From a bacterium (lineage in GTDB: Bacteria > Myxococcota_A > Bradymonadia > UBA7976 > UBA1532): a stretch of DNA of 49,068 nucleotides. The stretch lies in assembly GCA_030426945.1 (NCBI GenBank), contig JAUHXL010000003.1, forward strand, positions 1 through 49,068, in the 5' to 3' direction. Position numbers and translations under genes: made by a program. Below, one piece after another: positions 4,826-34,023 of the stretch; position 1 is the stretch's first letter, and each line of letters starts with the position of its first letter. The notes under the pieces were generated by a model, which saw only the letters and a list, made by a program, of their open reading frames with translations, searched no databases and had not been told where the DNA came from.

Positions 4826-7729
4826 ATGCGCGCCCCGCTCTCCCTCCTGGCTCTGCTGTTGTCGTCGGCCCTGGCCTCACCGACCCGGGCCGCCGACGAA
4901 CCCCCCGATCCCTTCGTGCTGACCCTCAGCGGGGGCGTCAGCCTGGGCACGTACCAGGCGGGCCAGACCTGGGCCGTGCTGGCCTATCTGCGCGCCGCCC
5001 GCGCGGGGGGGCTGCCCGGCGGGGCGCCCCTGGCCGATCTGCGGCCGGCCCTCAGCGGCGTGACCGGCGCCTCCGCGGGCGGCATCAACGCCCTCGCCGC
5101 CGCGGTGACCTGGTGCCTCGAGGATGTCGAGGCCGTGGACGACAACCTGCTGCGCTCGTTGTGGATCGACGTCGGCCTCGACCTGATGCTGCCCGCGGAC
5201 GCCGACGGCTACCTGGCCGAAGACGGCCTGCTGTCGCGCACCGCGCTGCAGCTGCCGGTCGAGCGCCTGCGCGCGGCCGTCGAGGGGCGGCGCTTTCGCC
5301 CCGGCTGCGCGCTGCCCGTCGCCCTCACCGTCACGCGGGCGACGCCGGCGCGGGTGCGCGCCGCCGGGCTCAACGTGCCCGGCCAGCGCGCCGTGGTGCC
5401 CTTGCGGCTGACCGTCGATCCGGCGGGGCGGCCGCGGGTCGGCGCGCAGCACCTGCCCTCGTCGGCCCCGCGCGTGGGGGAGCTGCTGTACCTCACCGAG
5501 CAGGCCGGCGAGGTCCCGATGGATCGCGTGGTGCGCGCGCTGCAAGCGTCGAGCGCCGTGCCGGTGGTGTTCTCGCCGATGCCCCTCGAGTACTGCGCGG
5601 CGACGTGCCCGGTGCGCGTCGAGCCGCCGGCCACCGGCGCCTGCGACCACCTGCCCGATCGCCCGGTCGCCTGCCGGGGCAACTTCGTCGACGGGGGCAT
5701 CTTCGACAACGTGCCGCTCGGCCTCGCCCGCGTCCTGGCCGAGGCCGGGCTCGAGCCGGTGGCGACGCACGAGCGCCCGATCACCTACATCTACGTCGAG
5801 CCCGCCAACCGGCGCCGCCGCCCGCGGGCCGAGCGCCCCCTCGCCGATCCGCCCGGCACCCAGCGCGCCGTCCCCGATCACGTGCGGCTCGGCCGCGATC
5901 TCGTCCTCTCGGCGGGGCGCTCGGTCCTGCTCGAGACGGTGCGCGGCAACCGCTGGAACCGCGACGTCGCCGATCTGGCCTGGGCCACCGCCGACGTGCT
6001 CGATCCCGAGCCGCCGGTCCACGGCGCCACCCGGCGGGTCCGCGCCACGGCCCTGCCCCAGTGCCTCGGGGTGGCGGTGGCGCGCCCCCGCGCCCAGCCC
6101 TGCGCCGAGGCGCTGGGCGTCGGCGCGGCCAGCCCGCCGCCGCCGCCCGATCCCGCCGCCCTCGCGGATCTGGCCGCCGCCCTGCGCGCGATGGCGCAGG
6201 CCCCGCCCCCCGACGCCGTCCTGCGCGCGCGCCTGCGGGCCGAGGGGTCGGATCCCGCGCTCGCGATGGGCGGCTTCCGGCGCCTCACCGCGCGCGGCCT
6301 GCGTCTGCTGGCGGTCGATCTCACGCGCGCCCGGGCCGGCGCGGGGGCCGACGACGCGCGCGTCGCCCGGGCCCTGTCCGACACCCTCATCGCCGTGCAG
6401 GACGCCCTCGTCTGGCCCGGCATGTTGGCCACCGACCCGGCCGTGGCGCGCCGCGTCGCGCAGCTGGCCGCCGACGCGGCCGCCCTCGAGGTCGAGCGGA
6501 CCCGCGACGGCGAGGGCCGCGCCGGTCGCCGGGTCCGACTCACCACGCGGCTCGCGCCGGTGGTCGGGGACGCCCTGTTCAACTTCGCCGCCTTCCTCGA
6601 TCGCCCCCTGCGCCGCTTCGACTACGCCGCGGGGGTGTACGACGGCGCCCAGTTCGTGGCCGAGTACGCCTGCCTGCACGCGGATCCCTACGCGGCGGCG
6701 CCGCCCGCGCGGGACGGCGAGGCGCCGCTGGACGCGCTCGATCCCGGCGACGCGCGCACCGCCCGCTGCGTCGGCGCGCGCACCGGCGAGGTGCTGCGGC
6801 GCCTCGGCGCGCTGGACGATCCCTACGTCGGCCGCGTCGTGCGGGCCCTGGGGCGGTGGGAGGGCGGGGACGCCGACGGCTGGGCCTGGACGGCCGGCGC
6901 GCCCGCCCGCGAGCCGCCCCCGACCGACGCCGAGGCCCTTAAGGTGCTGGCCGCGATGGTGCCCGGCCTCGATCCCTGCACGCCGGTCGACGCGATGGCC
7001 GAGGGCGAGCTCGACTTCGAGCAGCTGGTCCGCCGCCTGCGCTGCCTCGGCTATGACCCGCAGAGCCGCGCGATGGCGCGGGCCTACGCCGATCCCGCCG
7101 GGTGGTGGAATCAGCCGATCATCCGCCTGCTCGAGCGGGCCCTGCGGCTCGAGCGGATCGAGCGCGACGCCGCGGCGCCCGACACCGGGCGTCGGGCCGC
7201 GCTCGAGGACTCGGTCACCGGCATCGAGGCCGCCAACTACGCGGTGCGCCGCTACATCGACGCCCCGGCCACCTGGGGCTTCGGCACCACCAGCGCGCCC
7301 ACGGCCACCGTCCTGACGGCCCTGGTGCCCTACGGCCTCGACTTCGACATCAGCCGCGGCGGCGTGGGCGCCCGCTACGAGGCGTGGTGGCGCCCGGTGC
7401 GCCCCTTCTCGCTGCGCCTGCTCGCGACGCCCTACCGCTTCCGCCGGGAGGACTCGTGGACCGGGCTCACCCTGGCCGGCGCGGGCCACCTGCGCTCGCC
7501 GGCCCTGCGCACGTTCGGCGTCGGCCCCGCCGTCTTCCGCAACTGGGATCGCGGCGACGACGCCGCCTGGAGCTGGGGCGTCGAGGGCTACCTCGGCGTC
7601 ATCGTGGGCATCCTGCGGGTGGGCGGCGGCTACCGACACCTGCCCGAGGACAGCGGGGGCGACACCTTCTTCCTCAACCTGGGCGTCTCGGACTTCAACG
7701 CGCTCACCCGCCTGGTGCTGCTGCTGTGA
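4826..7729 (+). CDS. Secreted patatin-like phospholipase with C-terminal beta-rich domain
   Basis: Signal peptide, oxyanion loop SGGVSLG, nucleophile GASAG and catalytic DGG. Confidence 0.88.
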   Translation: MRAPLSLLALLLSSALASPTRAADEPPDPFVLTLSGGVSLGTYQAGQTWAVLAYLRAARAGGLPGGAPLADLRPALSGVTGASAGGINALAAAVTWCLEDVEAVDDNLLRSLWIDVGLDLMLPADADGYLAEDGLLSRTALQLPVERLRAAVEGRRFRPGCALPVALTVTRATPARVRAAGLNVPGQRAVVPLRLTVDPAGRPRVGAQHLPSSAPRVGELLYLTEQAGEVPMDRVVRALQASSAVPVVFSPMPLEYCAATCPVRVEPPATGACDHLPDRPVACRGNFVDGGIFDNVPLGLARVLAEAGLEPVATHERPITYIYVEPANRRRRPRAERPLADPPGTQRAVPDHVRLGRDLVLSAGRSVLLETVRGNRWNRDVADLAWATADVLDPEPPVHGATRRVRATALPQCLGVAVARPRAQPCAEALGVGAASPPPPPDPAALADLAAALRAMAQAPPPDAVLRARLRAEGSDPALAMGGFRRLTARGLRLLAVDLTRARAGAGADDARVARALSDTLIAVQDALVWPGMLATDPAVARRVAQLAADAAALEVERTRDGEGRAGRRVRLTTRLAPVVGDALFNFAAFLDRPLRRFDYAAGVYDGAQFVAEYACLHADPYAAAPPARDGEAPLDALDPGDARTARCVGARTGEVLRRLGALDDPYVGRVVRALGRWEGGDADGWAWTAGAPAREPPPTDAEALKVLAAMVPGLDPCTPVDAMAEGELDFEQLVRRLRCLGYDPQSRAMARAYADPAGWWNQPIIRLLERALRLERIERDAAAPDTGRRAALEDSVTGIEAANYAVRRYIDAPATWGFGTTSAPTATVLTALVPYGLDFDISRGGVGARYEAWWRPVRPFSLRLLATPYRFRREDSWTGLTLAGAGHLRSPALRTFGVGPAVFRNWDRGDDAAWSWGVEGYLGVIVGILRVGGGYRHLPEDSGGDTFFLNLGVSDFNALTRLVLLL

Positions 7730-12379: not shown

Positions 12380-14250
12380 TGAAGCGCGCACTGCTGATCG
12401 GCGCCGCCCTCGTGGCCAGCGCTTGCGACGACGGGGGCAGCCCCGCCCTCGAGCTCGAGGTCGACGCGGCGCCGGCGCCGGTCGACGCCGCCCCGCCCGC
12501 GCCCGACGCGGCCGCGCCCGACGCGGCCCCCGAGGACGCGGGGCCGCCGCCGCACCTCGACGCCCCGCTGGCCTGGATCTACGTCGACGACCCGGTGACC
12601 GACGAGGGCGAGCTGACCCAGGTGGCGCTCGCCCGCACGGATCACGCCGACGGCCGCCTCACCAACCACGCCGTCGAGGTCTTCAACTGCCTCAACGAGG
12701 AGGGGGGCGTCGTCGCCACGCCCGATCTCGGCGGGCTGATGCTGACCGTCAGCCTGTGCCACGAGGTGCAGGTGGCGCGCCCGGACGCCGACGGCAACTA
12801 CCTGAGCATCGTGCCGCCCGCGGACGAGTCGGATCCCAACGACTCGTTCGCCGAGGTGATGATGTATCACCAGGTCACGCGCGCGCGGGACTACTTCTTC
12901 GAACGCTTCGGCTTCACCGATCTCGACATCTCGCTGCCCGCGCTGGTGAACGTGCAGCTGAAGGTGGAGCCGCCCCTCAGCCTGGGGCCCTTCCGCCCCA
13001 ACGCCGACGGCTGGTACCCGCTGGCCAACGCCGCCTTCTTCCCGAAGGAGCAGTGGGATCTGTTCGCGTCCCAGTTCGGCCTGCCGCCGCGGGACAGCGA
13101 CAGCATCATCTTCTTCCAGGATCAGAAGGACTTCGCCTACGACGCGCGGGTCATCTTCCACGAGTACACCCACGCGGTGATCGGCTTCGACCGCCTGAGC
13201 GCGCAGCGCGTGGTCGACCGGTACGGGTTGAACCCGTCCACCTTCTCCATGCACGAGGGGCTGGCCGACTACTTCGCCGCCACCCTGGCCGACGACGCGG
13301 TCATCGGCCGCTACGTCGGGCAGGGCGGCTCCGGCATCCGCGACATCAGCGACCGCAAGAAGTGCCCCGACGACGTCGTCGCCGAGTCCCACGCGAACGG
13401 GCAGATCATCGGCTCGACGCTGTGGGCCGTGCGCCAGCGCCTCGGCGCCGAGGTCACCGATCAGATCGTCTACCGCGCGCTCGAGCAGTTCACGCAGACG
13501 ACCACCTTCGAGGAAGCGGCGGCGCTGATGATCGCCGAGGCCGAGGCCATGGATCCGGGCCTCGTCGAGCCGCTGCGGGCCGTCTTCGCCGAGTCCAACT
13601 TCGAGATCTGCGAGCGCTCGGCGCCGTGGGTCGACTTCGACGTCGACCGCGTCTGGCATCGGCTGCCCTACACCGTCGAGGGCAGCCAGTCGGTGGGCAT
13701 CGCCGGCTTCCGCGAGGGGGTGCCGGCCTACAAGCAGTTCCACGTCGATGTGCCGGCCGGCGCGCAGGCCGTCCGCGTCACCTGGCAGGCGATCGCCGGG
13801 GCCAGCTTCATCGGCCAGCCCGGCCCCCTGCGCGCGCCCTTGGATCTGGCGCTGCGCCACGGGCAGCCGATCGAGTTCACCTACGGGAACGGGGTGCGCA
13901 TGGATCTCGACCACCGCGTGACGCCGCCCCTCGCCGAGGGCGTGCAGACCGCGGTGCTCGCGGGCGATTGCCTGCCTGCGGGCGGCGGCCGTCTGCACAC
14001 GCTCTTCCTGAACACGGGCGCCGATCCGGCGCAGATCGTCCGGATGAACGCCGAGGTGCTCGAGGCGCTGCCGCTCGACGGCACGCCGATCATCGACTGC
14101 GGGGGCGGTGGGCCCACCGAGGGCGACGCGGGGCTACCCGCCGAGGACGCGGGCGTGCCCGATGCGGCGACCGGGGACGCGGGGGTGGGTGACGGCGGAG
14201 CGCCCGAGGCCGATGGGGGCCTCGACGCCGGGACGGCAGACGCCGGCTGA
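12379..14250 (+). CDS. M4/M36-like (gluzincin) zinc metallopeptidase lipoprotein
   Basis: Lipobox ASAC. Motifs NAAF, HEYTH (HExxH), downstream third ligand in MHEGLADYFA, and ESHANG. Starts in a TGATG overlap with the upstream gene. Confidence 0.85.
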   Translation: MKRALLIGAALVASACDDGGSPALELEVDAAPAPVDAAPPAPDAAAPDAAPEDAGPPPHLDAPLAWIYVDDPVTDEGELTQVALARTDHADGRLTNHAVEVFNCLNEEGGVVATPDLGGLMLTVSLCHEVQVARPDADGNYLSIVPPADESDPNDSFAEVMMYHQVTRARDYFFERFGFTDLDISLPALVNVQLKVEPPLSLGPFRPNADGWYPLANAAFFPKEQWDLFASQFGLPPRDSDSIIFFQDQKDFAYDARVIFHEYTHAVIGFDRLSAQRVVDRYGLNPSTFSMHEGLADYFAATLADDAVIGRYVGQGGSGIRDISDRKKCPDDVVAESHANGQIIGSTLWAVRQRLGAEVTDQIVYRALEQFTQTTTFEEAAALMIAEAEAMDPGLVEPLRAVFAESNFEICERSAPWVDFDVDRVWHRLPYTVEGSQSVGIAGFREGVPAYKQFHVDVPAGAQAVRVTWQAIAGASFIGQPGPLRAPLDLALRHGQPIEFTYGNGVRMDLDHRVTPPLAEGVQTAVLAGDCLPAGGGRLHTLFLNTGADPAQIVRMNAEVLEALPLDGTPIIDCGGGGPTEGDAGLPAEDAGVPDAATGDAGVGDGGAPEADGGLDAGTADAG

Positions 14251-14272
14251 GCCGCCGGGTCCGCCGGCCCCG

Positions 14273-14458
14273 TCAGGGCTCCAGCGGCGCCTGTGGCCCC
14301 GGCACGATGTGCGCGATGTCGGGGTCGATCCCCGCGGGCGTGTCCGGCCGCGTGGTCTTCTCCTCCATCTTCTGCAGCTTCTTGCGCCGCTTGTCTTCCC
14401 GCTTGTCCTGGCGGGCCTTCTCTTTCAAGCGCTTGTTGACGCTCGGGTTCATCGCCAT
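14273..14458 (-). CDS. Small basic hypothetical protein (61 aa)
   Basis: GGAGAG RBS before ATG 14458. Lys/Arg-rich helix followed by IDPDIAHIVPGPQ; codon usage is coding-like. Confidence 0.75.
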   Translation of the reverse strand: MAMNPSVNKRLKEKARQDKREDKRRKKLQKMEEKTTRPDTPAGIDPDIAHIVPGPQAPLEP

Positions 14459-14538
14459 GTGTGGCTCTCCACGCAATCTGTGCGGCGCGGAGTGTGGCAC
14501 GTTTGGTGGGTCCAGATCGCCTGCGATTCCGCGGGGTG

Positions 14539-14557
14539 AACCACCGATTGAGTGGTT
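14539..14557. promoter_or_regulatory. Inverted repeat AACCAC-N7-GTGGTT, candidate operator in a divergent promoter region
   Basis: Perfect 6-bp dyad in a lower-GC intergenic stretch between the small gene and the helicase operon. Confidence 0.35.
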
Positions 14558-14742
14558 ATGCCAATGACATCGGCTACTTGGCGTGCCTCGACTTTCTCGC
14601 GAGGGGCCGCCTGAGCGCGGCCGGGCGCTGAACCGCGGGCCCCGCGCCCCGCGCCGCCGACCGGATCGAGGCTCCGAGGCGCCTCGTGTCCGCTTCGGCG
14701 CGCGGCGCGCGTCCCTGGTGCACACGCACCCAGGGGAGCCCG

Positions 14743-17700
14743 ATGTCCGCGCTGCACTACCACGCCCTCGATCGCGCCTCCGTCGCCCGCGCCCTGCAGG
14801 GCCAGGCGACCGCCACGCTCGGCCCCTACCTGTTCCACCTCAAGAAGGGCATCGAGGCGGCCAGGACGCGCGCCGAGCGCTCGGACGTCGAGTGGGCGCG
14901 CGTCCCCGCGCCGGTGACCGTCGCCCTCGAGGCGCTCGACTCGCTGTTCGACCTGCCGCTGCGGCCCCAGTGGTACCTGGTCGAAGCGCTCGACGGCCGC
15001 GCGCCGGACCCCGACCAGCCCCTGATGGTGGATCGCGCGGCCGTGGTGCAGCTCGACGCGGTCGAGCGGGCCGGTGGGGTCTGGCGCGTTCGGCCGGCCG
15101 AGGCGGTGGCGCCCGGCGCCGAGGTCCGCTGGGACGGCTGCCCCGTCACGCTGCGGCCGGTCGAGGACGCGGTCGAGGTCTTCGACGGCGAGGGCCGGCC
15201 GCTGGCCGTCGAGCTGGTCGAGCGGCGCGCCGACGCCCTGCGCGTGGTCGCGCCGGGCCGCCACGCCACCGTGCACGACGCGGACGGCGCGATCCTGGCC
15301 GCGGCCCGACCGCCGCGCGAGGGCGCGCGCCTGCTGCGGGGGCCCGACGGCTTCGCCGTGCCGCTGCCGCCGGGCGACGCGCCCCTGGCCGACCGGCCGC
15401 CCGCCGGCACCCTGCGAGCCGACAACGGCGTGCGCTTCGCGGCCCGCGGCGAGCGCGCCGAGACGCGCGGCGTGCGCATCCAGCTCGTCGCCCCGCGCCA
15501 CGCCGACGAGGTGATCGATCCGCGCGACGCCTTCTTCGAGGAGGGCGTGCGCGAGGTCGAGAGCCACGCCAGGCGCGCGTTCGCCCGCCACCGCGTCCTG
15601 CGCCGCTTCCCCGACGAGCGCCAGCTCGTGCTCGACGAGGCGCCGCCGGCCGGGGCCAGGCTGCGCGTGTCGGTCAACGTGGTGAACCAGACCCGGCAGC
15701 GGCGCGCGCTGTTCGCCCTGCGTGATCGCCCGCAGCCCCACCACCGGCCCCTGCTGCGGCTGTTCGAGCAGCCCGAGCGCTGCCGCTGGCCCGCCGTCGC
15801 CCCGGTGGCCGTCGATGACTGGGCCTTCCTCACCGACGACCACGTCAGCGGGTGCGCCGCCCAGCGGCGCTCGGTCGAGGTCGCGCTCGGCACGCCCGAC
15901 TTCGCGCTCATCGAGGGCCCGCCCGGCTCGGGCAAGACCGCCGTCGTCACCGAGCTGGTCGTGCAGGCGGTGCGCCGCGGTCAGCGGGTGCTGCTCTGCT
16001 CGACCACCCACGTCGCCGTCGACAACGTCGTCGAGCGGCTGGGCCAGCTCCGAGAGCCGATCGAGGTGCTGCGCCTGGGCGACGCGGATCGCGTCGACGA
16101 GAGCCTAAGGGCACACCAGATCGACGCCGTCGTCGACGGGCTGGCCGGGGCGCTGCCGATGGGCGGCCCGGCCCTCGCGCGGCAGCTCGCGTTCGAGGCC
16201 GCCGACGTCGTGTGCGGCACGACCACCGGCGTGGCGCGCTACGACGAGATCGCCGCCGCCGCCGAGGGGCGTCCCTTCGATGTGCTCGTGCTCGACGAGG
16301 CCAGCAAGACGACGCTGCAGGAGATGGTGGTGCCCGCGCTGGCGGCCCGGCGCTGGATCATCGTCGGCGACGTGCGCCAGCTTCCGCCGTTCAGCGATCG
16401 CGCGATGCTCGAGGCGGCGCTCGCCGAGCTGAAGCTCGACGACGGGACGGTCTTGCCGGCCGCGCGCCAGCGCGCCGGCCTGCTCTGGCACGCCCTGCAC
16501 CGCGCGCGGCAGCCGGCGCTGGTGGTCGAGCCGCCCGCCGTGCTGGACGCGCTGCAGGCCGACCTCGCCGCGCGTGACAGCGACCGGGTGGTCGCGCGGC
16601 TCGAGGCGTCGCCGCGCGGTGACGCGGCCGCCGAGCTGCGCCGCCTGCTGGCCGCCGACCTGGTCTTGGTGACGCCCGCGGCGTTGCCGGCCTGGTCCGA
16701 TCGCCTGCCGCCGCACCTGCTGCTGGCGGCCCCGCTGAGCGATCTGGCGGACGAGACGCTGATCTTCCGTTGGCGTGCCACGCCGGCCGACCGGCAGGGC
16801 ACCGACCACCTGCGCCGGCAGCTCGAGGGCCGCACCTGGGCGGGCGAGGTGGCCTGGCGCATGGCCCGCGAGCACGAGCTGCGCCGGGCCGCCGCCGATC
16901 GCCAGCGCGACCGCTACGCCGACGCGCTCGATACGCTGCAGCCCGTCGATCCGGCGGTGCGCGGCGCGGTGGTGGCCCAGCGCGACATCGCGCTGCCCAG
17001 CGTCATCGAGGTGCTGCAGGAGGGCGCGGGGGAGACCCGGTTCCACCGCCCGACGCACCTGCAGAGCGGGCTGCCCGCGGCCGTGCTGCGCGGGCGTCTG
17101 GTCAGCCTGACCCACCAGCACCGGATGGTGCCCGCCATCTCGGACTTCCCGCGCGCCGCCTTCTACGCGGGCCAGGCCCTGGTCGACGGCTCGCTGCTCG
17201 ACGGGCGCGACGCCCGCGACGGCTGGCCCGCGACGCCCGACACCGCGCCCGGGCGCTTCTGGGTGCCCGTGCGGGGCGAGGTGCTGCAGGGCCGCAACGC
17301 GGCCGAGGTGCGCGCGATGCGGGGCGCGCTCGAGCGGCTGCTCGCGGCCCTGGGTGATCACCCTGCGCGGGGGCGCGCCCCCTGGTCGGTGGCCTGCCTC
17401 ACCTTCTACGTGCAGCAGTCGCTCGCCCTGCGCGACATGCTGCGGCAGCTCACGGGGCACGCGCGCGGTGAGTCCCGCTTCCGCCACGGCGCGGTCGAGA
17501 TCCTCTGCGGCACCGTCGATCGCTTCCAGGGGCGCGAGGCCGACGCGGTGCTGCTCAGCATGCGCAACGTCGGCGGCGTCGGCTTCATGGACAGCCCCAA
17601 TCGCCTGAACGTCGCGCTGACCCGCGCGCGCCGCCGCCTGTTGATCTTCGGCGATCCGGGCACGTTCGAGCGCTGCCGGGCCGACGAACTGCGGCAGCTC

Positions 17701-17754
17701 GTGTCCGGTACGCCCCGGCGCCCGCGTCCTGGGGCACACGAGGAGGCGAGATGA
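14743..17754 (+). CDS. Superfamily 1 helicase, Upf1/DNA2/NAM7-like (AAA_11/AAA_12)
   Basis: Walker A GPPGSGKT, Walker B DEAS, and motifs VGDVRQLPP, QHRM, TVDRFQGRE and NRLNVALTRAR. GGGGAG RBS. Confidence 0.93.
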   Translation: MSALHYHALDRASVARALQGQATATLGPYLFHLKKGIEAARTRAERSDVEWARVPAPVTVALEALDSLFDLPLRPQWYLVEALDGRAPDPDQPLMVDRAAVVQLDAVERAGGVWRVRPAEAVAPGAEVRWDGCPVTLRPVEDAVEVFDGEGRPLAVELVERRADALRVVAPGRHATVHDADGAILAAARPPREGARLLRGPDGFAVPLPPGDAPLADRPPAGTLRADNGVRFAARGERAETRGVRIQLVAPRHADEVIDPRDAFFEEGVREVESHARRAFARHRVLRRFPDERQLVLDEAPPAGARLRVSVNVVNQTRQRRALFALRDRPQPHHRPLLRLFEQPERCRWPAVAPVAVDDWAFLTDDHVSGCAAQRRSVEVALGTPDFALIEGPPGSGKTAVVTELVVQAVRRGQRVLLCSTTHVAVDNVVERLGQLREPIEVLRLGDADRVDESLRAHQIDAVVDGLAGALPMGGPALARQLAFEAADVVCGTTTGVARYDEIAAAAEGRPFDVLVLDEASKTTLQEMVVPALAARRWIIVGDVRQLPPFSDRAMLEAALAELKLDDGTVLPAARQRAGLLWHALHRARQPALVVEPPAVLDALQADLAARDSDRVVARLEASPRGDAAAELRRLLAADLVLVTPAALPAWSDRLPPHLLLAAPLSDLADETLIFRWRATPADRQGTDHLRRQLEGRTWAGEVAWRMAREHELRRAAADRQRDRYADALDTLQPVDPAVRGAVVAQRDIALPSVIEVLQEGAGETRFHRPTHLQSGLPAAVLRGRLVSLTHQHRMVPAISDFPRAAFYAGQALVDGSLLDGRDARDGWPATPDTAPGRFWVPVRGEVLQGRNAAEVRAMRGALERLLAALGDHPARGRAPWSVACLTFYVQQSLALRDMLRQLTGHARGESRFRHGAVEILCGTVDRFQGREADAVLLSMRNVGGVGFMDSPNRLNVALTRARRRLLIFGDPGTFERCRADELRQLVSGTPRRPRPGAHEEAR

Positions 17755-18827
17755 AGACGACGATGACCGCGAGGATCGAGGTGCGCCGCGTCAGCACCCA
17801 CGCCCGGGTGCAGCACACCACCGCGCGCGCCGACCTGCAGGCCCTGTGCGTCGCCGCGAGCGCCGCGCCGCTCGACGCGGGGCGCGCCGCCGCGCTGTGG
17901 CCCGAGCTGGGGGCGCGCGGCGCCGCGACGCTGGTGAAGGCGCTGCGCCGCATGGGCCTTCTCGGTCGCGAGGGCGCGCTGACCGCCGCCGGCGTGCGGT
18001 GCCGCGACACGGCGCAGGTGGTCGCGGTCGAGGAGGGCCAGCATCACCTCTGGGTGGCCGAGCACCCGATCCTCGGGCGGCGCGCCCTGCACGTCGAGCG
18101 GATCGGCGACCGCGACGACGCGGTCCGCGACGAGGACGTGGTCGCCCTGCCGGCCGCCGTCTGCGACGCCGAGCCGGCACGCTCGGTCCTGACCGACGCC
18201 GTGCTGGCGGTCGAGCGGATCGGCCCCGGCGATCTGGCCCCCGCCGGCCGCGTCACCCCCCAGTCGGCCGCCACGCTGACCGTCGACGTCGACTTCGTCG
18301 CCGATCGCGCCACGTGGACGCTCGCCGGCGCGCTGCACGGCGCCGCCGCTGGCCAGGACTTCCGCACCGCGCCGGCGCGGCTCGACCTCGACACGCAGGC
18401 CCTCTACGCCCGCTGGGAGCCGGACTGGAGCGTCGAGCGCGGCCGCCTGCTGATGGACTTCGACGACGACCCGAGCGAGCCGCCCTTCGTCCGCGACTGG
18501 ACCTACGATCCGGTCACGCTGCCGGGCGGGGGCACCTACCACGACGTGACGGTGCGGGGCGTGCCGGTCGGCCCCAGCGACGCCACGCAGGCGGCGCGCT
18601 GGGCGTTGGCCCTCTGGGCGCGTCGGGTGGCCGCCCTCGGCGGGCCCACGCGGGGTGCCCCGCTGGCCCGGGGCTACGCGGCGCTGGTGGCCGACACGCC
18701 GGTGGCCGCCGTGCCCGCGCCGCCGCTGGGCGACCTGCTCGACCGGCTACGGCGCGACGGCGCCCGCGACGCCTTCTGGCGCGTCGCCGCGCCCCACGAC
18801 CTGAACCCCACGGAGGTGATCCGATGA
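17751..18827 (+). CDS. Hypothetical protein, possible N-terminal winged helix; helicase-associated
   Basis: ATGA overlaps with both neighbours. LVKALRRMGLL....LTAAG resembles a wHTH recognition helix and wing. Confidence 0.75.
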   Translation: MKTTMTARIEVRRVSTHARVQHTTARADLQALCVAASAAPLDAGRAAALWPELGARGAATLVKALRRMGLLGREGALTAAGVRCRDTAQVVAVEEGQHHLWVAEHPILGRRALHVERIGDRDDAVRDEDVVALPAAVCDAEPARSVLTDAVLAVERIGPGDLAPAGRVTPQSAATLTVDVDFVADRATWTLAGALHGAAAGQDFRTAPARLDLDTQALYARWEPDWSVERGRLLMDFDDDPSEPPFVRDWTYDPVTLPGGGTYHDVTVRGVPVGPSDATQAARWALALWARRVAALGGPTRGAPLARGYAALVADTPVAAVPAPPLGDLLDRLRRDGARDAFWRVAAPHDLNPTEVIR

Positions 18828-20902
18828 TCGCGCTGACCGGGCCCATCGAGGCCATCGACCACGCCGACACCGTCGACCGCCGCGACGTCCGCGGTGACTG
18901 GTGGGTGTCCCAGCCGGCCGCCGTCTCGGCGCCCGCGCCCTGGGGGGACGCCGCCGACCGTGATCTCGCGGGGCTGAGCGCGGTCCTCGCCGGGGACGTG
19001 TTCGTCGGCGTCGTCGGTGATCCCGACGATGGGATCCTGGAGCTGGCGGCGGCGGCGGCCGCGGAGGGGGCGCGGGTCTACCTGCTCGGCGCCGAGGACG
19101 CCCTCCGGCGGCTGCCCGCGGGGGACGTCGCCGCCCGGGTGCTGGGCGCCGAGGCCGGCAGCTGGTGTGTCCGGGGCGCCGGCGGGCTGGCCTGGGGCGC
19201 CGGCGCGCGGCTGACGCTCGACGCCGCGCTGGCTCGGGCCGCGCACGCGCTGTTCACCGATCTCTGGTGGTACGAGGCCGCCGCCGAGTGGCGGGGCGGC
19301 CGCCGCGCCCCGCTGGAGCCCTCGCCCTTCGGCGCGGACGAGCGCGCCGACCTGCGCGAGGCGCCCGTCCGCCTCGAGACGGGGGCGCGCGACCGGGCGC
19401 GCGACGCGCGCCTGCTGGTCGCGCCGCGCACGCTGCCCGGCGTTCGGCCCCCGACGGTGCTGACGCGCCCGCACGCGGTGGACGCGGCGACGCTGGCCGA
19501 GTGGGCGCGCGCCGGCACCCGCGTCCTCGGGCTCGAGGCGGATCGGGCGCTGCCCGCGCTGGCCATCGCGCCGCGGCGCTGCGTCGTGGGGCTGCCCGCG
19601 GGCGCGCGCACGCTGCGGATCGAGATCGCCGACGCCGCGTTCGCCGCCGCCGCGGGCCACCACGTCGAGAGCCTCGCGACGTGGCGCCTGCAGGTCGACC
19701 AGCGCCTCGGTGACGTCGCGGGGCCGATCTGGCTGGCCGGTGAGGCGCCGCGGCCGACGGTGGCCCGGCAGGCGCGGACGCTGCCGCCGGTGGTCGCGCC
19801 CCTCGACGCGCGCTTCCCCGACGCCCAGCCCACCGCGCGGCCCGCGCCGGATCCGCTGGCGCTCGAGGTCGCCGACGCCTGGCGGGTGGAGCCCCCGCGG
19901 CTGCCCGCGGGCGCCGCGCAGGACGCGCTGCACCGCGAGTGGGCCCGGCTGGACGACGCCGTACAGGTGCGGGCGCGGCAGGCCAGCGCCGCGCTGGCGG
20001 CCGAGGCGCCCCGCGTCGCGCGCGCCCTGCTCGATCGGCTGACCGGGCGGCAGGCGCTCGAGGGCCAGCGGCGCGCGCTGAACGACGAGGCGAAGGCGCT
20101 GGCCGAGGTGGCGCCGTCCGAGCGCGCTGAGCAGGCCGCCGAGCGCTGCCGGCGGCTCATCGCGCTCGAGGCCGAGGTCGAGGCGTGGCGGCGGGCGCGC
20201 GGGGCCGCGATCGACGAGGCGCGGCAGCGCGAGGCCCACGCCGCGCGGGTGGCCGAGGCGCAGGCCCGGTGCGCGGCGCTCGAGGCCGGGCGGGCGCCGC
20301 TCGACGCCACCCTGCGCGCGGCGCGGGTGGACCTGGCCGCCGCCGAGGCCGCGTGGTCGGCCGCGCGGGACGGTGCGCGCGCGGGCGCGGTCGAGCGGGT
20401 CGCCGCGGCGCTCGCCGAGGCCGTCGAGGCCGCGGAGCAGGCGCTCGGGTCGATGGGCTCCGGGTCGAGCAGCGGCAAGAAGAACAAGCGCCGGCAGGCC
20501 GCGCAGGACGTGGTCGCGAAGGCGCGCGCCGCCGCGGAGGCGGGACCGACGGCCGCCGACATCGAGGAGGCGATCGACGCCGATCCGGCGGTCCGGTCGG
20601 CGCGCGCCGCGCACGACACCGCGCGGCGCGCCGCGGCCGGCGCCGACGCCGCGTGGGCCGACGCGCAGCGTGCGCTGGCGGACGCCCGCGCCGCCGCCGA
20701 CGCGCCCTTCGTGCTCCGACCCCGCGCCGAGGCGTCGGCGCCGGCCCCCGCGCCCCTGCCGCCCGTGCCCGCCGAGGCCCTGCCCGCGGTCGGGGCGCTC
20801 CACCGCCACGAGGGTCGTCGCCTGCTGGCCATCCGCACCTGGCACCAGGTGCCCCAGGCGCGCCTCGACGCCGCGCGCCTCGGCGCCGAGCTGGTCGTCT
20901 GA
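18824..20902 (+). CDS. Hypothetical protein: degenerate PLD-like N-terminus plus long Ala/Arg/Glu coiled coil
   Basis: ATGA overlap at 18824. ILELAAAAAAEGARVYLL resembles the PLD 'aa.rGvrV.ll' segment, but no HxK motif is present. Heptad-rich region around 19930-20700. Confidence 0.7.
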   Translation: MIALTGPIEAIDHADTVDRRDVRGDWWVSQPAAVSAPAPWGDAADRDLAGLSAVLAGDVFVGVVGDPDDGILELAAAAAAEGARVYLLGAEDALRRLPAGDVAARVLGAEAGSWCVRGAGGLAWGAGARLTLDAALARAAHALFTDLWWYEAAAEWRGGRRAPLEPSPFGADERADLREAPVRLETGARDRARDARLLVAPRTLPGVRPPTVLTRPHAVDAATLAEWARAGTRVLGLEADRALPALAIAPRRCVVGLPAGARTLRIEIADAAFAAAAGHHVESLATWRLQVDQRLGDVAGPIWLAGEAPRPTVARQARTLPPVVAPLDARFPDAQPTARPAPDPLALEVADAWRVEPPRLPAGAAQDALHREWARLDDAVQVRARQASAALAAEAPRVARALLDRLTGRQALEGQRRALNDEAKALAEVAPSERAEQAAERCRRLIALEAEVEAWRRARGAAIDEARQREAHAARVAEAQARCAALEAGRAPLDATLRAARVDLAAAEAAWSAARDGARAGAVERVAAALAEAVEAAEQALGSMGSGSSSGKKNKRRQAAQDVVAKARAAAEAGPTAADIEEAIDADPAVRSARAAHDTARRAAAGADAAWADAQRALADARAAADAPFVLRPRAEASAPAPAPLPPVPAEALPAVGALHRHEGRRLLAIRTWHQVPQARLDAARLGAELVV

Positions 20903-20977
20903 GCCCGAATGGGCGCGCCCGTGTCCGGTTCTCGCGCCGGGCGGCGTCCTCGAAACGCAACCACCAAGGAGGACGCC

Positions 20978-21697
20978 ATGAGCGTCGACGGCAACCTGCC
21001 GCTGGAGATGGAGCTGCCCGGCGGGCCGCTCTCCGCCCGCCCCCTGGACTTCATCTTCCTGCTCGACGCCTCGTCGTCGATGGACGGGGCGAAGATCCAG
21101 TCCCTGAACCAGGCCGTCGAGGCCGCGCTGCCTGCGATGCGCGACGTGGCGCGGGACAACCCGAACGCGGCGGTGCGGGTGCGCGCCATCCAGTTCAACA
21201 GCGGCGCCTACTGGCACATCCCGACGCCGACGCCGGTCGAGCAGGTGGCCTGGACGCCGTTGAGCGCGAGCGGGAGCACCGCGATGGGCCGCGCGCTCTC
21301 GATGTGCGCCGCCCAGCTGCGCACGCCGCCGATGCCCGACCGGGCGCTGCCGCCGGTGCTGGTGCTGATCAGCGACGGCGCGCCCACCGACGACTTCCGC
21401 GCCGGGCTGAACGCGCTGATGGCCGAGCCCTGGGGCAAGAAGGCGGTGCGCATCGCCATCGCGATCGGCGAAGGCGCCGACCTGGCGGTGCTGCGTGCGT
21501 TCATGGGGCACCCGGAGCTCGAGCCCCTGCGCGCGAACAACGCGGAGACGTTGGTGCAGTGTGTGCGCTGGGCGTCGACGGCGGTGCTGCAGGCCGCGTC
21601 GGCGCCGCCGAGCCGCGCGCTGGGCGCCCCGGCGCCGAGCGGCAACGTGGCGCTGCCCGCGCCGCCGCCCCCGGCCAGCGCCGCGGACGTCTGGTGA
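20978..21697 (+). CDS. terY: TerY-like von Willebrand factor A domain protein
   Basis: MIDAS residues DASSSM, GSTAMG and ISDGAPTD. AAGGAGG RBS. First gene of a vWA-PP2C-kinase triad. Confidence 0.9.
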   Translation: MSVDGNLPLEMELPGGPLSARPLDFIFLLDASSSMDGAKIQSLNQAVEAALPAMRDVARDNPNAAVRVRAIQFNSGAYWHIPTPTPVEQVAWTPLSASGSTAMGRALSMCAAQLRTPPMPDRALPPVLVLISDGAPTDDFRAGLNALMAEPWGKKAVRIAIAIGEGADLAVLRAFMGHPELEPLRANNAETLVQCVRWASTAVLQAASAPPSRALGAPAPSGNVALPAPPPPASAADVW

Positions 21698-22521
21698 AGG
21701 CGCCGCGCCTGCGCGTCGCGGCGATCGCGCACAGCGTGGCGGGCGCGGCGCACATCCGGCAGATGCGTCCCTGCCAGGACGCCTTCCGGGTGGAGTCCAC
21801 GGGCGAGGGGGTCGCCGTCGCCGTCGCCGTCGCCGATGGGCACGGCAGCAGCCGGCACGCGGCCGAGGGCGCCACGTTCGCCGTCCAGACCGCGACCCGC
21901 ACCCTGGCGGACCTGCACGCGGCGCTCGGCGCGGACGCCGGGACCGGCGCGTACCGCGCGCAGCTCGAGGACGCCGTGGGCCGCCGCCTGGTGCTGGCCT
22001 GGCAGGACGTGGTGCAGCGCCACGGCTCGATCGACGGCATCAAGCGGAGGCCGGGTGAGCCCGACCTCGAGGTCACCCATCGCTACGGCACGACGTTGTC
22101 CGCGGCCCTCGCGACGCCCGACGTCGTTGCCTGCCTCGCCCTGGGCGACGGCGCGACGCTGTGGGTGTCGCCCGAAGACGAGGTGCTGCGGCCGCTGGGC
22201 GACGACGCCCACGCCTTCGCCGATCAGACCTCGTCCCTGTGCACCGCCGGCGCCTGGCGCGCCCTGCGCGCGACCGCCTGGACGCCCCCCGCCGAGGGCG
22301 GGCTGCTGCTGATGATGAGCGACGGCTACGTGAACTCGTACCCCGACGACGCCGCGCTCGACGCGGTCGCGCGCGACTACGCCCGCCTGGTGCGCGCCCG
22401 CGGCCTCGACGCCGTGGGCGCCGCCCTGCGCGGCTTCCTGCGCCAGGTCTCGATCCGAGGCTGCGGCGACGACGTCTCGCTCGCCCTGATCCACTTCGCC
22501 CCGCTGGAGGACGCCCGATGA
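21694..22521 (+). CDS. PP2C-family protein phosphatase (TerY-P triad)
   Basis: Motifs G..H......CQDA, VADGHGS, GTT, LGDG, SDG and DDVS. GTGA overlap with terY. Confidence 0.9.
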   Translation: MKAPRLRVAAIAHSVAGAAHIRQMRPCQDAFRVESTGEGVAVAVAVADGHGSSRHAAEGATFAVQTATRTLADLHAALGADAGTGAYRAQLEDAVGRRLVLAWQDVVQRHGSIDGIKRRPGEPDLEVTHRYGTTLSAALATPDVVACLALGDGATLWVSPEDEVLRPLGDDAHAFADQTSSLCTAGAWRALRATAWTPPAEGGLLLMMSDGYVNSYPDDAALDAVARDYARLVRARGLDAVGAALRGFLRQVSIRGCGDDVSLALIHFAPLEDAR

Positions 22522-23819
22522 CCCTCTCGTTGCCTCAGTCGCTGCACACCCGCGAAGGCCAGCCCGTCGCCTGCCGCCGCCTGCTCGGCGAGGGCGGCCA
22601 GGGCCGCGTCTTCGAGGTCACCGTCGACGGCGCGGCCCACGCGCTGAAGCTGTACCACCCGCACATGGCGCCCGCCGCCCAGCGCGGCATGATCGAGCGC
22701 GCCGTGCAGGGGGGGCCGCCCTCGGCTCACTTCCTCTGGCCCACCCACGTGGTGGCCGGCCCGGGCGACGCGTTCGGCTACCTGATGCCCCTGCGCCCGG
22801 CCCGCTTCCGCTCGGTGCCCGACCTGGTCACGCGGCGGGTGACGAGCACCTTCCCGGCGATCCTCACCGCCGCCGCCGAGCTGGCCAGCGCCTTCCACGA
22901 CTTGCACGCGAAGGGCCTGGCCTACTGCGACATCTCGTGGGGCAACGTCTTCCTCGACCCCCAGTCGGGCGAGGTGCTCGTCTGCGACAACGACAACGTC
23001 GACGTCGACGGCGCCGCGACGGCCACCGTCCTGGGCACGCCGCGGTTCATGGCCCCCGAGATCGTGCGCGGCGAGGTCGGGCCGTCCGTGCGCACCGACC
23101 GCTTCTCGCTGGCGGTGCTGCTGTTCCAGATGCTGTTCAACGGCCACCCCCTCGACGGCGCGCGCGAGGCCAAGGTGCGCAGCCTGGACGGTCCGGCCCT
23201 CGAGCTGCTGTACGGCACGCGGCCGATCTACGTGTTCGATCCGAAGGACGCGTCGAACCGCCCGGTGCCCGGCATCCACGACAACGTGCTGATCTTTCGA
23301 AAGATTTGGCCTTCGTCCCTGCAGCGCCTGTTCGCGACGGCCTTCACCGATGGCCTGACGCAGCCCGGCCGCCGGCCGACGGAGGGCGAGTGGCGCGACG
23401 CGCTCTTCGCGACCCGCGATCTGCTGCACCCGTGCGGCGCTTGCGCTCGACCCAACGCGCTCGAGGTGGACGCGCTGCGCGCGGGCGACGCGGGGGCGTG
23501 CTGGTCGTGCGGTGGCTCGGTGGGCCCGGTCACCTGGATCGAGCTGGGCCGCGGCGCGTTGGCCCTGCCCCTGGGGCGGGCCCTCTTCCCGCACCACCTG
23601 GGCGCGCGGCACGACTTCGGGGCGCCCGCGGCCCAGGTCGAGGCGCACCCCGCGGACGCCCGGCGGCGCGGACTGCGCAACCTCGGCGCCGGCGCCTGGA
23701 CGATCACCCGCCCGGACGGCGCGCTCGTGCCGGTGCCACCCGGCCGCGCCGCCGCGCTCGAGCCGGGCTTCGCGCTGGACTTCGGCCGGGTGCGCGGGCA
23801 CGTCCACCGCACGCGCTGA
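22518..23819 (+). CDS. Ser/Thr protein kinase (TerY-P triad) with Zn-ribbon and C-terminal FHA-like beta domain
   Basis: Motifs GEGGQG, ALKLY, YCDISWGN, CDNDN, GTPRFMAPE and DRFSLA. Also CGAC...CWSC and a GLRNL...W tail. ATGA overlap with the phosphatase. Confidence 0.9.
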   Translation: MTLSLPQSLHTREGQPVACRRLLGEGGQGRVFEVTVDGAAHALKLYHPHMAPAAQRGMIERAVQGGPPSAHFLWPTHVVAGPGDAFGYLMPLRPARFRSVPDLVTRRVTSTFPAILTAAAELASAFHDLHAKGLAYCDISWGNVFLDPQSGEVLVCDNDNVDVDGAATATVLGTPRFMAPEIVRGEVGPSVRTDRFSLAVLLFQMLFNGHPLDGAREAKVRSLDGPALELLYGTRPIYVFDPKDASNRPVPGIHDNVLIFRKIWPSSLQRLFATAFTDGLTQPGRRPTEGEWRDALFATRDLLHPCGACARPNALEVDALRAGDAGACWSCGGSVGPVTWIELGRGALALPLGRALFPHHLGARHDFGAPAAQVEAHPADARRRGLRNLGAGAWTITRPDGALVPVPPGRAAALEPGFALDFGRVRGHVHRTR

Positions 23820-23892
23820 TCGGCGCGTCGGTCGAGACAGCGGCGCGCGAGGGGCGTAGGGTGTGGCGCCTCGGGATGGAGCGGGTGCCCCC

Positions 23893-24624
23893 ATGGACGA
23901 CCTCACCACCACCACGCTGTTGGGCCTCGCCCTCGGCCTGCGCCACGCCCTCGACGCCGATCACGTCGTCGCCGTGGCCACCATCGCCGCCCGCGAGCGT
24001 CGGCCGCTGGCCGGCGCCGCCATCGGGGCCTTCTGGGGGCTGGGCCACTCGGCCGTGGTGCTGCTCGCCGGTCTGGCGGTGCTGTGGCTGGGGGTCGTCG
24101 TGCCCGAGCGCGTCGGGCTGGCCGCCGAGCTCGGCGTCGCGGCGATGCTGGTCGGCCTGGGTGTCTGGAGCTTGCTGGGCCTGCGCACCCGCAAGGGTCA
24201 CCGCCCCCATCGTCACGGCGATCATGTGCACACCCACCCGCCCGGCGACGCCGGCGCGGGCCACGGCCACCCGCTGGGGGCCGATCCGGTGAGCCGGGTC
24301 GACGCGGCGCTGGGCCACGCGCGCCTGTACCGCCGCCTGCGCCCCGCGGTGGTCGGCGCCCTGCACGGCCTGGCCGGCTCGGCCGCGCTCGCTCTGCTGC
24401 TGGTGCCGATGGTCACCCGCCCGCTCGTCGGCGTGGGCTATCTGCTCGCCTTCTGCGCCGGCACCGTCCTCGGCATGGTCGGCGCCACCCTGCTCATCGC
24501 TTTGCCCGCCACGCTGGGCGCCGGCCGCTGGCCCCGCCTGCCCGACGCCGTCCGCGGGTTCGCGGGCGTGGCGAGCATCGGGGTGGGCGTGCTGCTCGCC
24601 CGCTCGGTGATGCTGACCCTCTGA
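23893..24624 (+). CDS. HoxN/NiCoT-UreH family nickel/cobalt transporter
   Basis: Motifs GLRHALDADH, WGLGHS and HGLAGSAA, plus a His-rich loop (HRPHRHGDHVHTH). Confidence 0.9.
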   Translation: MDDLTTTTLLGLALGLRHALDADHVVAVATIAARERRPLAGAAIGAFWGLGHSAVVLLAGLAVLWLGVVVPERVGLAAELGVAAMLVGLGVWSLLGLRTRKGHRPHRHGDHVHTHPPGDAGAGHGHPLGADPVSRVDAALGHARLYRRLRPAVVGALHGLAGSAALALLLVPMVTRPLVGVGYLLAFCAGTVLGMVGATLLIALPATLGAGRWPRLPDAVRGFAGVASIGVGVLLARSVMLTL

Positions 24625-32705: not shown

Positions 32706-33310
32706 ACGAGGCCCCCGATCTGGGCGCGCTGCGCGCGCGGCTCGAGGCGGACGATCGCTCGGCGCGGCGGACGGCCGCGGCGCGGCTGGGACGCTTGTTG
32801 GGCGAGATCGAGGATCCGGCGCCGCTGGCCCCGTTGCTCGAGCGCGCCCTGGCCGACGTCGATCCGGCCGTGCGTCGCTCGGCCGTCGAGGCGCTCGCGG
32901 GCGGCGCGGCGCGGCACCCGGCGCTGGTGGCGCGGCTGGTCGAGTCGCGGCTGAGCGAGGACGAGGTGACGCTGCGGCGCGCGCTGGCCGGCGCCTTCGC
33001 GGCCGCCCTGGTCAGCCTGGGGCTGGCGCCGGCCGCCCACGGCGTCGCGCTGCACGCCCTGGGTGATCCCGACGCCGAGGTGCGGGCGCAGCTGGTGGGC
33101 GCGCTGGCGCGCGTCGCCGAGGCCGGCGCCGCGCTGGACGCGTGGCTGGATGCGCTGGTGACCCGCCTGGACGATCCGGTGGCCGCGGTGCGCGGGGCGG
33201 CGATGCGGGCGCTCCTGGCGGCGGCCCGCCGAGACGCCGCGCACGCGGTGCGCATCCACGGCCGCTTCGCCGCGCAGCGGCGGCGGGCCGAGGCGGGTGG
33301 ATCCGCGTGA
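32702..33310 (+). CDS. HEAT-repeat protein
   Basis: Repeated L.D.DP.VR..A motifs; ATGA overlap with the upstream gene. Confidence 0.8.
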   Translation: MNEAPDLGALRARLEADDRSARRTAAARLGRLLGEIEDPAPLAPLLERALADVDPAVRRSAVEALAGGAARHPALVARLVESRLSEDEVTLRRALAGAFAAALVSLGLAPAAHGVALHALGDPDAEVRAQLVGALARVAEAGAALDAWLDALVTRLDDPVAAVRGAAMRALLAAARRDAAHAVRIHGRFAAQRRRAEAGGSA

Positions 33311-34023
33311 GCTTCGATCCGACGCTCTACACCCTGCTGCACCGGGGCTCGCCTGGCGACGTGGCCTTCTATCGTCGGGTGTGCGACGGCGCCGGCTCGG
33401 TGCTCGAGCTGGGCTGCGGGGACGGGCGCGTCCTGGCCGCCCTGCGCGCCCCCGGCCGCACCCTGGTGGGCCTCGATCTGCACCCCGGCATGGTCGAGGC
33501 GGCGCGCGCGCGCCTCGCGGACGACGCCGCGGTCCACCTGGGCGACATGGCGGACTTCGCGCTCGACGCGCGCTTCGACCGGGTGATCGTGCCCTTCACC
33601 GGCTTCTACTGTCTGCCCGACGACGACGCGATGGTGGCCTGCCTGCGCGCCGTGCGCCGCCACCTGGCGCCCGGCGGCCGCCTCGTGTTCGACGCCTACC
33701 CAGGGGAGCCGCTGCTCGAGGTCGGCGCCTTCGATCCGCGCTGGGAGGCCGTCGCCGAGGTCGAGGCCGGCGGGCGCCGCTGGCTGATCCACGAGCGCGA
33801 CCACAACTGGCCCGCCGACCGCCGCATCGACGTGAGCTACCGGCACGTCGCCGACGACGGCGCCGTGGTCGAGTACACCCTGCGCCACCACTACCTGATC
33901 GCGGCCGACGTCCCTCGGCTGCTGGCGGCCGCCGGCCTGCGGCTGCGCGGGCTGTGGGGCGACTTCGACGGCCGCCCCTTCGATCCCGACGGCGAGCGGC
34001 TGGTCGTCAGCGCCGAGCCCTGA
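33307..34023 (+). CDS. Class I SAM-dependent methyltransferase
   Basis: Motifs DVAFY, VLELGCGDGR, GLDL, GDMADF and HLAPGGRLVFD. GTGA overlap. Confidence 0.9.
   Translation: MSFDPTLYTLLHRGSPGDVAFYRRVCDGAGSVLELGCGDGRVLAALRAPGRTLVGLDLHPGMVEAARARLADDAAVHLGDMADFALDARFDRVIVPFTGFYCLPDDDAMVACLRAVRRHLAPGGRLVFDAYPGEPLLEVGAFDPRWEAVAEVEAGGRRWLIHERDHNWPADRRIDVSYRHVADDGAVVEYTLRHHYLIAADVPRLLAAAGLRLRGLWGDFDGRPFDPDGERLVVSAEP

Follow-up and report, generated by a model that had tools for sequence, protein, structure and literature searches.

Phage RNA or replication intermediates are the presumed signals recognised by Mokosh and by the predicted CoCoNuT helicase systems. As described, Mokosh pairs a Upf1-like helicase with a phospholipase D (PLD) nuclease, its type I helicase protein carries a kinase domain, and defence requires the PLD active site (10.1101/2022.05.11.491447). 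According to PMC11090510, a TerY-P triad whose kinase bears a zinc ribbon belongs to CoCoNuT types II and III-A, in some cases with a CDC48-like ATPase added, and TerY-P triads beside operons of a Upf1-like helicase (CnuH) and a winged helix-turn-helix (wHTH) protein are already described there. In these types, CnuB and CnuC are an McrB-like GTPase and an McrC homologue, and CnuE is an elongated wHTH protein fused to a HEPN or other nuclease. The same paper cites a stand-alone TerY-P defence system (Gao et al. 2020), in whose tested version an OB fold follows the kinase. Here we describe a six-gene locus at positions 14743-23819 (+ strand) of a 49,068-nt stretch of DNA, the window, from a bradymonadial bacterium (Myxococcota_A; GenBank assembly GCA_030426945.1, contig JAUHXL010000003.1, positions 1 to 49,068). 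The locus joins a Upf1-like helicase, a wHTH protein and a PLD-fold protein (genes 1-3, the trio) to a von Willebrand factor A (vWA) protein, a PP2C phosphatase and a Ser/Thr kinase (genes 4-6, the triad). This cassette is a conserved unit across phyla and has a defence-like distribution. With moderate confidence, we take the six genes for a single conserved and horizontally mobile cassette that most likely serves in anti-phage defence or another kind of conflict, and in which a nuclease-dead relative of the Upf1-like-helicase/PLD systems (Mokosh-like, CnuH/CnuE-like) is permanently joined to a zinc-ribbon TerY-P triad. New here are the loss of the HKD motifs in gene 3, the six-gene unit across phyla, the linked divergence of its halves, the known defence genes in the flanks of foreign copies, and the existence of sister cassettes with other partners and of triads without the trio.

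Gene 3, a PLD fold without HKD motifs, and its operon partners

Gene 3 (18824-20902, + strand, 692 aa) encodes a putative pseudo-PLD/coiled-coil scaffold, as judged from its AlphaFold2 (AF2) fold and from hhalign comparisons. An earlier reading by a model that saw only the DNA letters and their translations (the sequence-only reading) had called the product PLD-like and coiled-coil; the fold and the long helices both stand in the AF2 model (pLDDT 81.5), but the call needs correcting in one respect, the protein having no HKD motif. A two-lobed PLD fold spans residues ~37-311 and is matched by Foldseek to the PLD 7e0m (5e-6), with VIA Z-scores of 15.5 to 7e0m_A (252 aligned residues, root mean square deviation 4.3) and of 14-14.7 to PLD3/PLD4. 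In the VIA list of 50 matches, ranks 1-45 and 47-48 are solved PLD-superfamily enzymes, ranks 46, 49 and 50 being the archaeal chromatin protein TrmBL2. Long helices follow the fold at residues 368-626, and the protein ends with a small conserved beta-alpha domain (658-691).

Although the two-lobed fold is present, the HxK(x)4D catalytic motif is missing in both lobes: at the H-x-K sites gene 3 reads A111-G112-S113 in lobe 1 and L243-P244-gap in lobe 2. Neither His nor Lys occurs at the HxK columns in any gene 3 relative, in alignments of 14 and of 16 sequences, and other columns of the family stay invariant despite this loss. More remote versions of the cassette within the phylum encode, at the gene 3 position, a 500-aa protein that has a pair of Pfam PLDc_2 domains and clearly shows two HxK motifs. 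A profile of the 14 gene 3 relatives aligns with these double-HKD PLD proteins over 372 columns (hhalign 99.4%, E 1.6e-21), and three features of these active cousins persist in gene 3: the N-terminal strand, the WxVxPPxLP segment and the C-terminal domain. As far as sequence can tell, gene 3 is a pseudo-enzyme, predicted to be catalytically dead, that appears to have acquired a coiled coil of ~250 aa. The sequence-only reading had cast the helicase half as an effector complex; this proposal is not supported, because with a PLD-like protein that is apparently catalytically dead the half has no recognisable effector. When gene 3 alone served as query for related loci, no relative was returned. 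In most six-gene relatives (L102-L136), a W-S/T-P-P loop and a Ser/Lys-rich loop lie between the long helices; the window protein has GSGSSSGKKNKRR at residues 545-557, and we speculate that these could be kinase target sites. In the congeneric genome G002, the gene 3 homologue (locus L009, 9927-11993) matches in frames 3, 2, 1 and then 3 again, which could reflect indels of the assembly or a gene that is broken; all other cassette genes of this genome, five in number, are intact.

Upstream of gene 3, the sequence-only reading had named a helicase and a wHTH-like protein, and both calls are upheld. Gene 1 (14743-17754, + strand, 1003 aa) is an open frame for a Upf1-like superfamily 1 helicase, with Pfam matches to AAA_11 (1e-31) and AAA_12 (1e-26); its best PDB sequence matches are SMUBP-2 (3.7e-35), UPF1 (7.6e-25), DNA2 and SEN1, and its best PADLOC model is MkoA (4.7e-75). 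The helicase motifs are intact (Walker A GPPGSGKT at 392-399, DEAS at 518-521, GDVRQLPP at 542-549, ALTRAR at 958-963), and the N-terminal ~365 aa match no Pfam family. Gene 2 (17751-18827, + strand, 358 aa), a putative wHTH adaptor, is defined by its AF2 fold (pLDDT 88.3) and by its profile family. Its wHTH, at residues 22-89, is framed by long beta-hairpins and reaches VIA Z-scores of 7-8.4 to MarR/PadR-type regulators over 62-67 aligned residues. Past the wHTH, the protein continues with a beta-rich, helical part; Foldseek with the whole model returned no match, and the part outside the wHTH is unmatched. The gene 2 profile recovers 866 representative clusters at E<=1e-3, 620 at 1e-10 and 143 at 1e-30, among 1.84 billion; these family counts come from the full profile search, a word-index search having returned 4 proteins only. 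The full length of gene 2 is homologous to gene 2 of a variant cassette with an active PLD (hhalign 99.1%).

The identifications of the downstream genes as vWA, PP2C and kinase likewise proved correct (Pfam), and together they have the make-up of a TerY-P triad, the three genes being adjacent and a zinc ribbon lying C-terminal of the kinase domain. Gene 4 (20978-21697, + strand, 239 aa) encodes a TerY-like vWA protein (Pfam VWA, 2e-9) whose metal ion-dependent adhesion site (MIDAS) is intact in the motif alignment (D30-x-S32-x-S34, T101, D133). Its C-terminal tail is conserved, ends in DVW and could be a docking peptide, judging from its conservation. In all 14 aligned six-gene loci this tail (21572-21694) shares RWASTAVLQAAS, then NVP.P..P, then VW at the end. 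Gene 5 (21694-22521, + strand, 275 aa) is a PP2C phosphatase (Pfam PP2C_2, 2.2e-36) in which the alignment locates the metal-binding Asp motifs at D29, D48-G-H-G, D210 and D259/D260. Gene 6 (22518-23819, + strand, 433 aa) combines a Ser/Thr kinase (Pfam Pkinase, 8e-14; G-loop 24-29, K44, D138/N143, D157, APE 179-181 in the alignment) with a predicted zinc ribbon (CGAC 306-309, CWSC 328-331) that is conserved in relatives, and then with a beta-rich tail of ~100 aa for which no Pfam or Atlas family was found. Across the locus, the catalytic motifs of helicase, kinase and PP2C and the MIDAS are intact and conserved in the aligned relatives.

Family assignments end there for several parts. Neither gene 2 nor gene 3 has a match in Pfam, NCBIfam or PADLOC, and gene 5 has none in NCBIfam. 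A Pfam search of the kinase tail, the helicase N-terminus and insert, the gene 2 C-terminal part and the gene 3 C-terminal domain returned nothing at E<=5 except one chance-level row, and the ESM Atlas gave only unnamed clusters or scores <0.9 for the kinase tail and the helicase N-terminus. In the scan with PADLOC 2.0 hidden Markov models, which is what we mean here by a PADLOC result, only the helicase (MkoA-like) and the kinase (PD-T4-6 at 8.5e-15, and mad6) were named; the TerY model reached only E=0.028 against the vWA protein, and PP2C was matched by no model.

The six genes are tightly packed. A plot of GC content at third codon positions (GC3) by frame displays six consecutive + strand coding frames over 14743-23819, with in-frame GC3 of 0.94-0.98 in a window of ~0.76 GC, and all six genes translate without internal stops. 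The junction letters ATGA, ATGA, GTGA and ATGA at 17751, 18824, 21694 and 22518 are 4-nt overlaps, which confirms the layout first read from the letters: six co-oriented genes, four overlaps and one 75-nt gap. The gap (20903-20977, + strand) is the sole non-overlapping junction of the operon and falls between trio and triad. The vWA frame is open from 20909; the chosen start is the ATG at 20978, and a ribosome-binding site, AAGGAGG, lies within the gap at 20966-20972, ending seven bases before this ATG, which argues that the gap is correctly drawn. A contig of DNA from a related strain spans 20716-21367, across the gap. Many read "joints" were rejected as GC-rich chance matches, with sides of ~20 nt.

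Distribution and surroundings of the cassette

Conservation of the neighbourhood shows that the arrangement, which the sequence-only reading had proposed as a possible system, is not a chance one. A search with the vWA protein covered ~186,000 species genomes and returned 45 loci; in 20 of these, the vWA gene is immediately preceded by the helicase, gene 2 and gene 3 in the order and spacing of the window, three of the loci being cut by contig ends. With the window copy added, the six-gene unit is found in 21 genomes. As labelled, the 20 loci belong to Latescibacterota (6), Myxococcota (8), Pseudomonadota (5, of which 4 Gammaproteobacteria) and Rickettsiales (1), and the Rickettsiales-labelled locus is placed in the window's phylum by genome classification. 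Flanking genes are held in common only within three pairs of close relatives. In nine other vWA loci the upstream DNA is short and no trio gene was seen. Triads without the trio (L083, L084, L086 and 13 others) have vWA proteins 50-65% identical and neighbours that are unrelated or without assigned role; in the Chromatium and Thiocystis records, the kinase gene is upstream, not downstream, of the vWA gene.

The halves of the unit also diverge together. For the 11 loci that both alignments cover, identities between pairs of vWA proteins and between pairs of gene 3 proteins are correlated (r=0.92, reached in 0 of 5000 permutations, a test that is inflated by host relatedness), which argues that the halves move as one. 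In vWA as in gene 3, the copies from Latescibacterota are close to those from Gammaproteobacteria, and this pattern against taxonomy fits transfer of the whole cassette. The window copy is the most divergent, its vWA being 60-66% and its gene 3 25-29% identical to the others. Within the phylum the distribution is patchy: the gene 2 profile finds 20 of 401 sampled genomes (~5%), plus two close relatives, and four of the 20 gene 2-bearing genomes of the sample have the six-gene form. When forms were sorted by tblastn of all six proteins against 20-kb stretches, five had the six-gene form: the window, the congeneric G002 and one genome from each of three further families. No copy of the cassette was found in G001 (92% complete), one of the three genomes of the window's genus. 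An empty-site test in G001 found neither flank syntenic at the DNA level; only the region of a small open reading frame (ORF) upstream of the operon matches, at 79%. In G002, an additional FGE-sulfatase-domain gene (L009, 14928-16223, - strand), missing in the window, lies between the kinase gene and a NicO-like gene.

The trio recurs with other partners in what we call sister cassettes. The AAA+ form (10 loci), the commonest of the variants, comprises a PF00004 AAA+ ATPase, the helicase, gene 2 with an extra domain of ~190 aa, gene 3 and a DUF1257 gene. In L010 and 9 other loci, the ATPase (L010 2378-5152; IetA-like by PADLOC, 1.7e-24) is upstream and DUF1257 (L010 12195-12755) downstream. 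In the active-PLD form (5 loci), gene 2 is followed by a PLD with both HKD motifs, which matches MkoB at 1e-15 to 6e-18; the helicase was seen in four of these loci, not in L052, and in L051 the helicase is present and gene 2 is cut by a contig end. An RtcR-like CARF-AAA-HTH regulator accompanies this form in 3 loci (PADLOC 5e-153). In 2 loci the active-PLD form adjoins large serine recombinases (L047 13791-15971, L049 4846-6897), which suggests carriage on integrative elements. One further locus holds the helicase-wHTH-PLD trio alone. The extra domain of gene 2 occurs in the AAA+ form and in the stand-alone trio, is missing from the window's form and has no family. Across its copies (L010, L012, L036-L041, L046, L011), DRYV, H-x-R and a Trp are invariant and NSP is near-invariant, with motifs DRYVRG, PHDRY and SNSPL; a reading of it as one PLD lobe found no support (hhalign 0.9%, E 0.064; chance-level matches only in a PDB profile search). 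A helicase tree of 23 sequences from a quick search places all three forms in one clade; the branching of type A conflicts with host families, and the six-gene form falls in two lineages, with which a single origin of the form may still be compatible.

Known defence genes are frequent beside the cassette elsewhere. We scanned 93 flank ORFs with PADLOC models (E<=1e-8), picked from 107 after short or overlapping ones were dropped and three window ORFs were exchanged for frame-checked ones. Defence genes are present in the flanks of 7 of the 11 foreign six-gene loci and absent from 4: Septu PtuA, BREX BrxL with PglZ, CBASS cyclases (two loci), PbeA, TmtA with a ZorE-like HNH protein, and a PDC-S37/Hhe-like helicase with ZacB. 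The sequence-only reading had pictured a cassette inserted among unrelated genes. The neighbours in the window are indeed ordinary (a patatin-like protein, a dehydrogenase, TPR and transport proteins among 14 ORFs searched with Pfam), but base composition gives no sign of recent insertion. The patatin-like phospholipase domain is N-terminal in a 967-aa protein (4826-7729) with no PADLOC match. Some 9 kb downstream of the cassette, at 33142-34020, lies a mad2-like domain (6e-16).

Upstream, ~285 nt of non-coding DNA (14459-14742, + strand) and a small divergent ORF of 61 codons on the minus strand (14276-14458) part the operon from the preceding gene, so that the operon has its own 5' region, in which the GC3 plot displays no coding signal and which is presumably a promoter/leader. 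The promoter itself can only be inferred within 14459-14742, since the sigma-70 scan gave 0 sites and the Rfam scan of 13800-24300 matched no family; 3 terminator-like sites were found, none at the operon end. The small ORF encodes a very basic protein without family, with 93% protein identity in G002 and 79% DNA identity in G001.

A possible mechanism and its rivals

We propose a complex of helicase, wHTH adaptor and dead-PLD/coiled-coil protein, which would bind, and translocate on, foreign RNA or single-stranded DNA; that genes 1-3 act as one complex is suggested by their translational coupling in all three forms. The output of this helicase half probably passes to the triad and would run via the kinase/phosphatase pair, given that the six-gene form has no recognisable nuclease. 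The vWA protein may dock the complex, as an adaptor to kinase and phosphatase; the kinase would phosphorylate host or phage targets, or the complex itself, and so stop infection, and PP2C would keep the system off or reset it. Signalling could also run the other way, from a triad that licenses the helicase complex. A complex prediction for gene 3 with vWA scored 0.01 and carries no weight either way. As a tentative and rather doubtful extension, helicase, wHTH and PLD-fold protein could be a common sensor chassis fitted with three swappable modules: active PLD/RtcR, CDC48-like AAA+/DUF1257, and vWA-PP2C-kinase. The window form would then be immunity without nucleic-acid cutting, in which detection of foreign RNA or DNA is written as protein phosphorylation.

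Several observations weigh against a single defence cassette. The trio is missing in 16 of the 45 vWA loci despite 10 kb of upstream DNA, and elsewhere 10 loci pair it with AAA+/DUF1257, 5 have it with an active PLD and 1 has it alone. One RNA library holds near-identical contigs of 157-328 nt over parts of genes 1, 2, 3 and 5, none of which crosses a junction; they may be DNA carry-over and prove neither transcription nor co-transcription. The expectation of a defence-gene neighbourhood is borne out by the foreign loci but not at home, where the flanks are no defence island and PADLOC matches only 1 of 26 ORFs, the mad2-like domain. Finally, as Mokosh needs an active PLD (10.1101/2022.05.11.491447, accessible part), the output of a system with a dead one is a guess. 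A rival explanation, which we consider unlikely, is that trio and stand-alone TerY-P triad are two independent systems, each working alone and side by side only because defence genes cluster and travel together. Trio and triad do each occur separately, the only non-overlapping junction sits exactly between them, and the CoCoNuT authors, in the sections available, suggest that TerY-P triads could be stand-alone cassettes augmenting a core system and cite stand-alone TerY-P-like defence (PMC11090510). Two such systems would hardly keep order, orientation and close spacing fixed in 21 genomes whose flanks are shared by close relatives only, nor diverge in step. Moreover, the trio in the window has a dead PLD and is without the extra C-terminal domain that gene 2 has in the AAA+ form, so that it has no visible output of its own.

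A function outside immunity would suit the ordinary neighbours in the window (Pfam, PADLOC) and a PLD whose predicted inactivity argues against nucleic-acid degradation: a Upf1-like complex might clear aberrant RNA under a metal- or stress-sensing TerY-P switch. Such a stress or RNA-surveillance module also has precedent in the available text of PMC11090510, in which Upf1-like helicases act in RNA quality control and TerY-P is linked, through works cited there, to tellurite resistance and metal sensing. We regard it as improbable all the same for a cassette that occurs in only ~5% of the phylum-sample genomes, is not found in the congener G001, has crossed phyla and lies elsewhere beside BREX, Septu, CBASS and other defence genes. 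Least probable of all, and very much so, is that the locus is the decaying remnant of a Mokosh-like system that lost its nuclease and then its function. Both HKD motifs are lost and the G002 gene 3 match is split over three frames, as decay would have it; yet every one of the 14 and 16 relatives in the alignments shares the HKD loss, many other columns being invariant, the six ORFs are intact with strong codon bias, catalytic motifs are conserved and the dead-PLD form has spread across phyla.

The cassette offers a natural dissection: it retains the kinase switch but has a dead nuclease, and in its sister cassettes other modules replace that switch on the same chassis. The unit occurs in at least 3 phyla and, at 9.1 kb, is small enough to be moved to a laboratory host. 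With it, the role of TerY-P phosphorylation in helicase-based immunity becomes directly testable, and a system without a name in the PADLOC 2.0 models would be added.

Comparison with known systems

The sequence-only reading had thought the system uncharacterised. In support of this, PADLOC has no models for genes 2-5, and the locus lacks the active PLD and the fused kinase of Mokosh type I and the McrB/McrC proteins of the CoCoNuTs; against it, PMC11090510 describes a related kind, and because TerY-P triads are already linked there to Upf1-like helicase/wHTH operons, the locus is less new than was first thought. Our literature search for the exact combination found only that paper and its preprint; an earlier mention in Anantharaman et al. 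2012 or in the CoCoNuT supplementary files is possible.

The parallel with Mokosh type I, drawn from the letters alone, was apt: a Upf1-like/COG1112 helicase, a PLD-fold protein and a Ser/Thr kinase stand in one locus. The differences are that (i) the window kinase is a separate gene within a triad and is not fused to the helicase; (ii) an extra wHTH gene lies between helicase and PLD; and (iii) the PLD is without both HKD motifs, carries the coiled coil of ~250 aa and has no MkoB match. With its kinase separate, its extra wHTH gene and its PLD site gone, the locus is not a Mokosh member.

To the CoCoNuTs, as far as they are set out in the available sections of PMC11090510, the locus is likened by a Upf1-like helicase followed by a wHTH protein, by coiled coils and by a TerY-P triad with a zinc-ribbon kinase; the CDC48/SpoVK-like AAA+ extension reported there also has a counterpart in the AAA+ ATPase of our sister AAA+ form. 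In contrast, the window has no McrB/McrC (14 neighbour ORFs by Pfam, 26 ORFs by PADLOC), gene 2 carries no HEPN or other nuclease family in Pfam, and the triad is downstream, not upstream. In the helicase tree, a branch with support 100 parts the cassette clade from CoCoNuT-type helicases, of which only two sequences were included, and gene 2 compared with one putative CnuE gives an hhalign value of 0.2%. CoCoNuT-like loci do exist in the same phylum, with RtcR, a DUF4258 toxin-like gene, vWA, PP2C, kinase, helicase, a 555-aa protein and AAA_5 (L094); their vWA is ~38% identical to that of the window and their helicase is distant.

With the TerY-P system of Gao et al. 2020, known to us through its citation in PMC11090510, the cassette has vWA, PP2C and Ser/Thr kinase in common, in the same order; it differs in having a zinc ribbon and tail rather than an OB fold, and the PADLOC TerY models were not matched. 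The sister cassettes share its families of helicase, gene 2 and gene 3, and the order of these genes. We class the cassette as a variant among systems already described, not as a category of its own. The most fitting description is that of a nuclease-dead form without McrBC, close to Mokosh and CnuHE, to which a TerY-P triad is joined.

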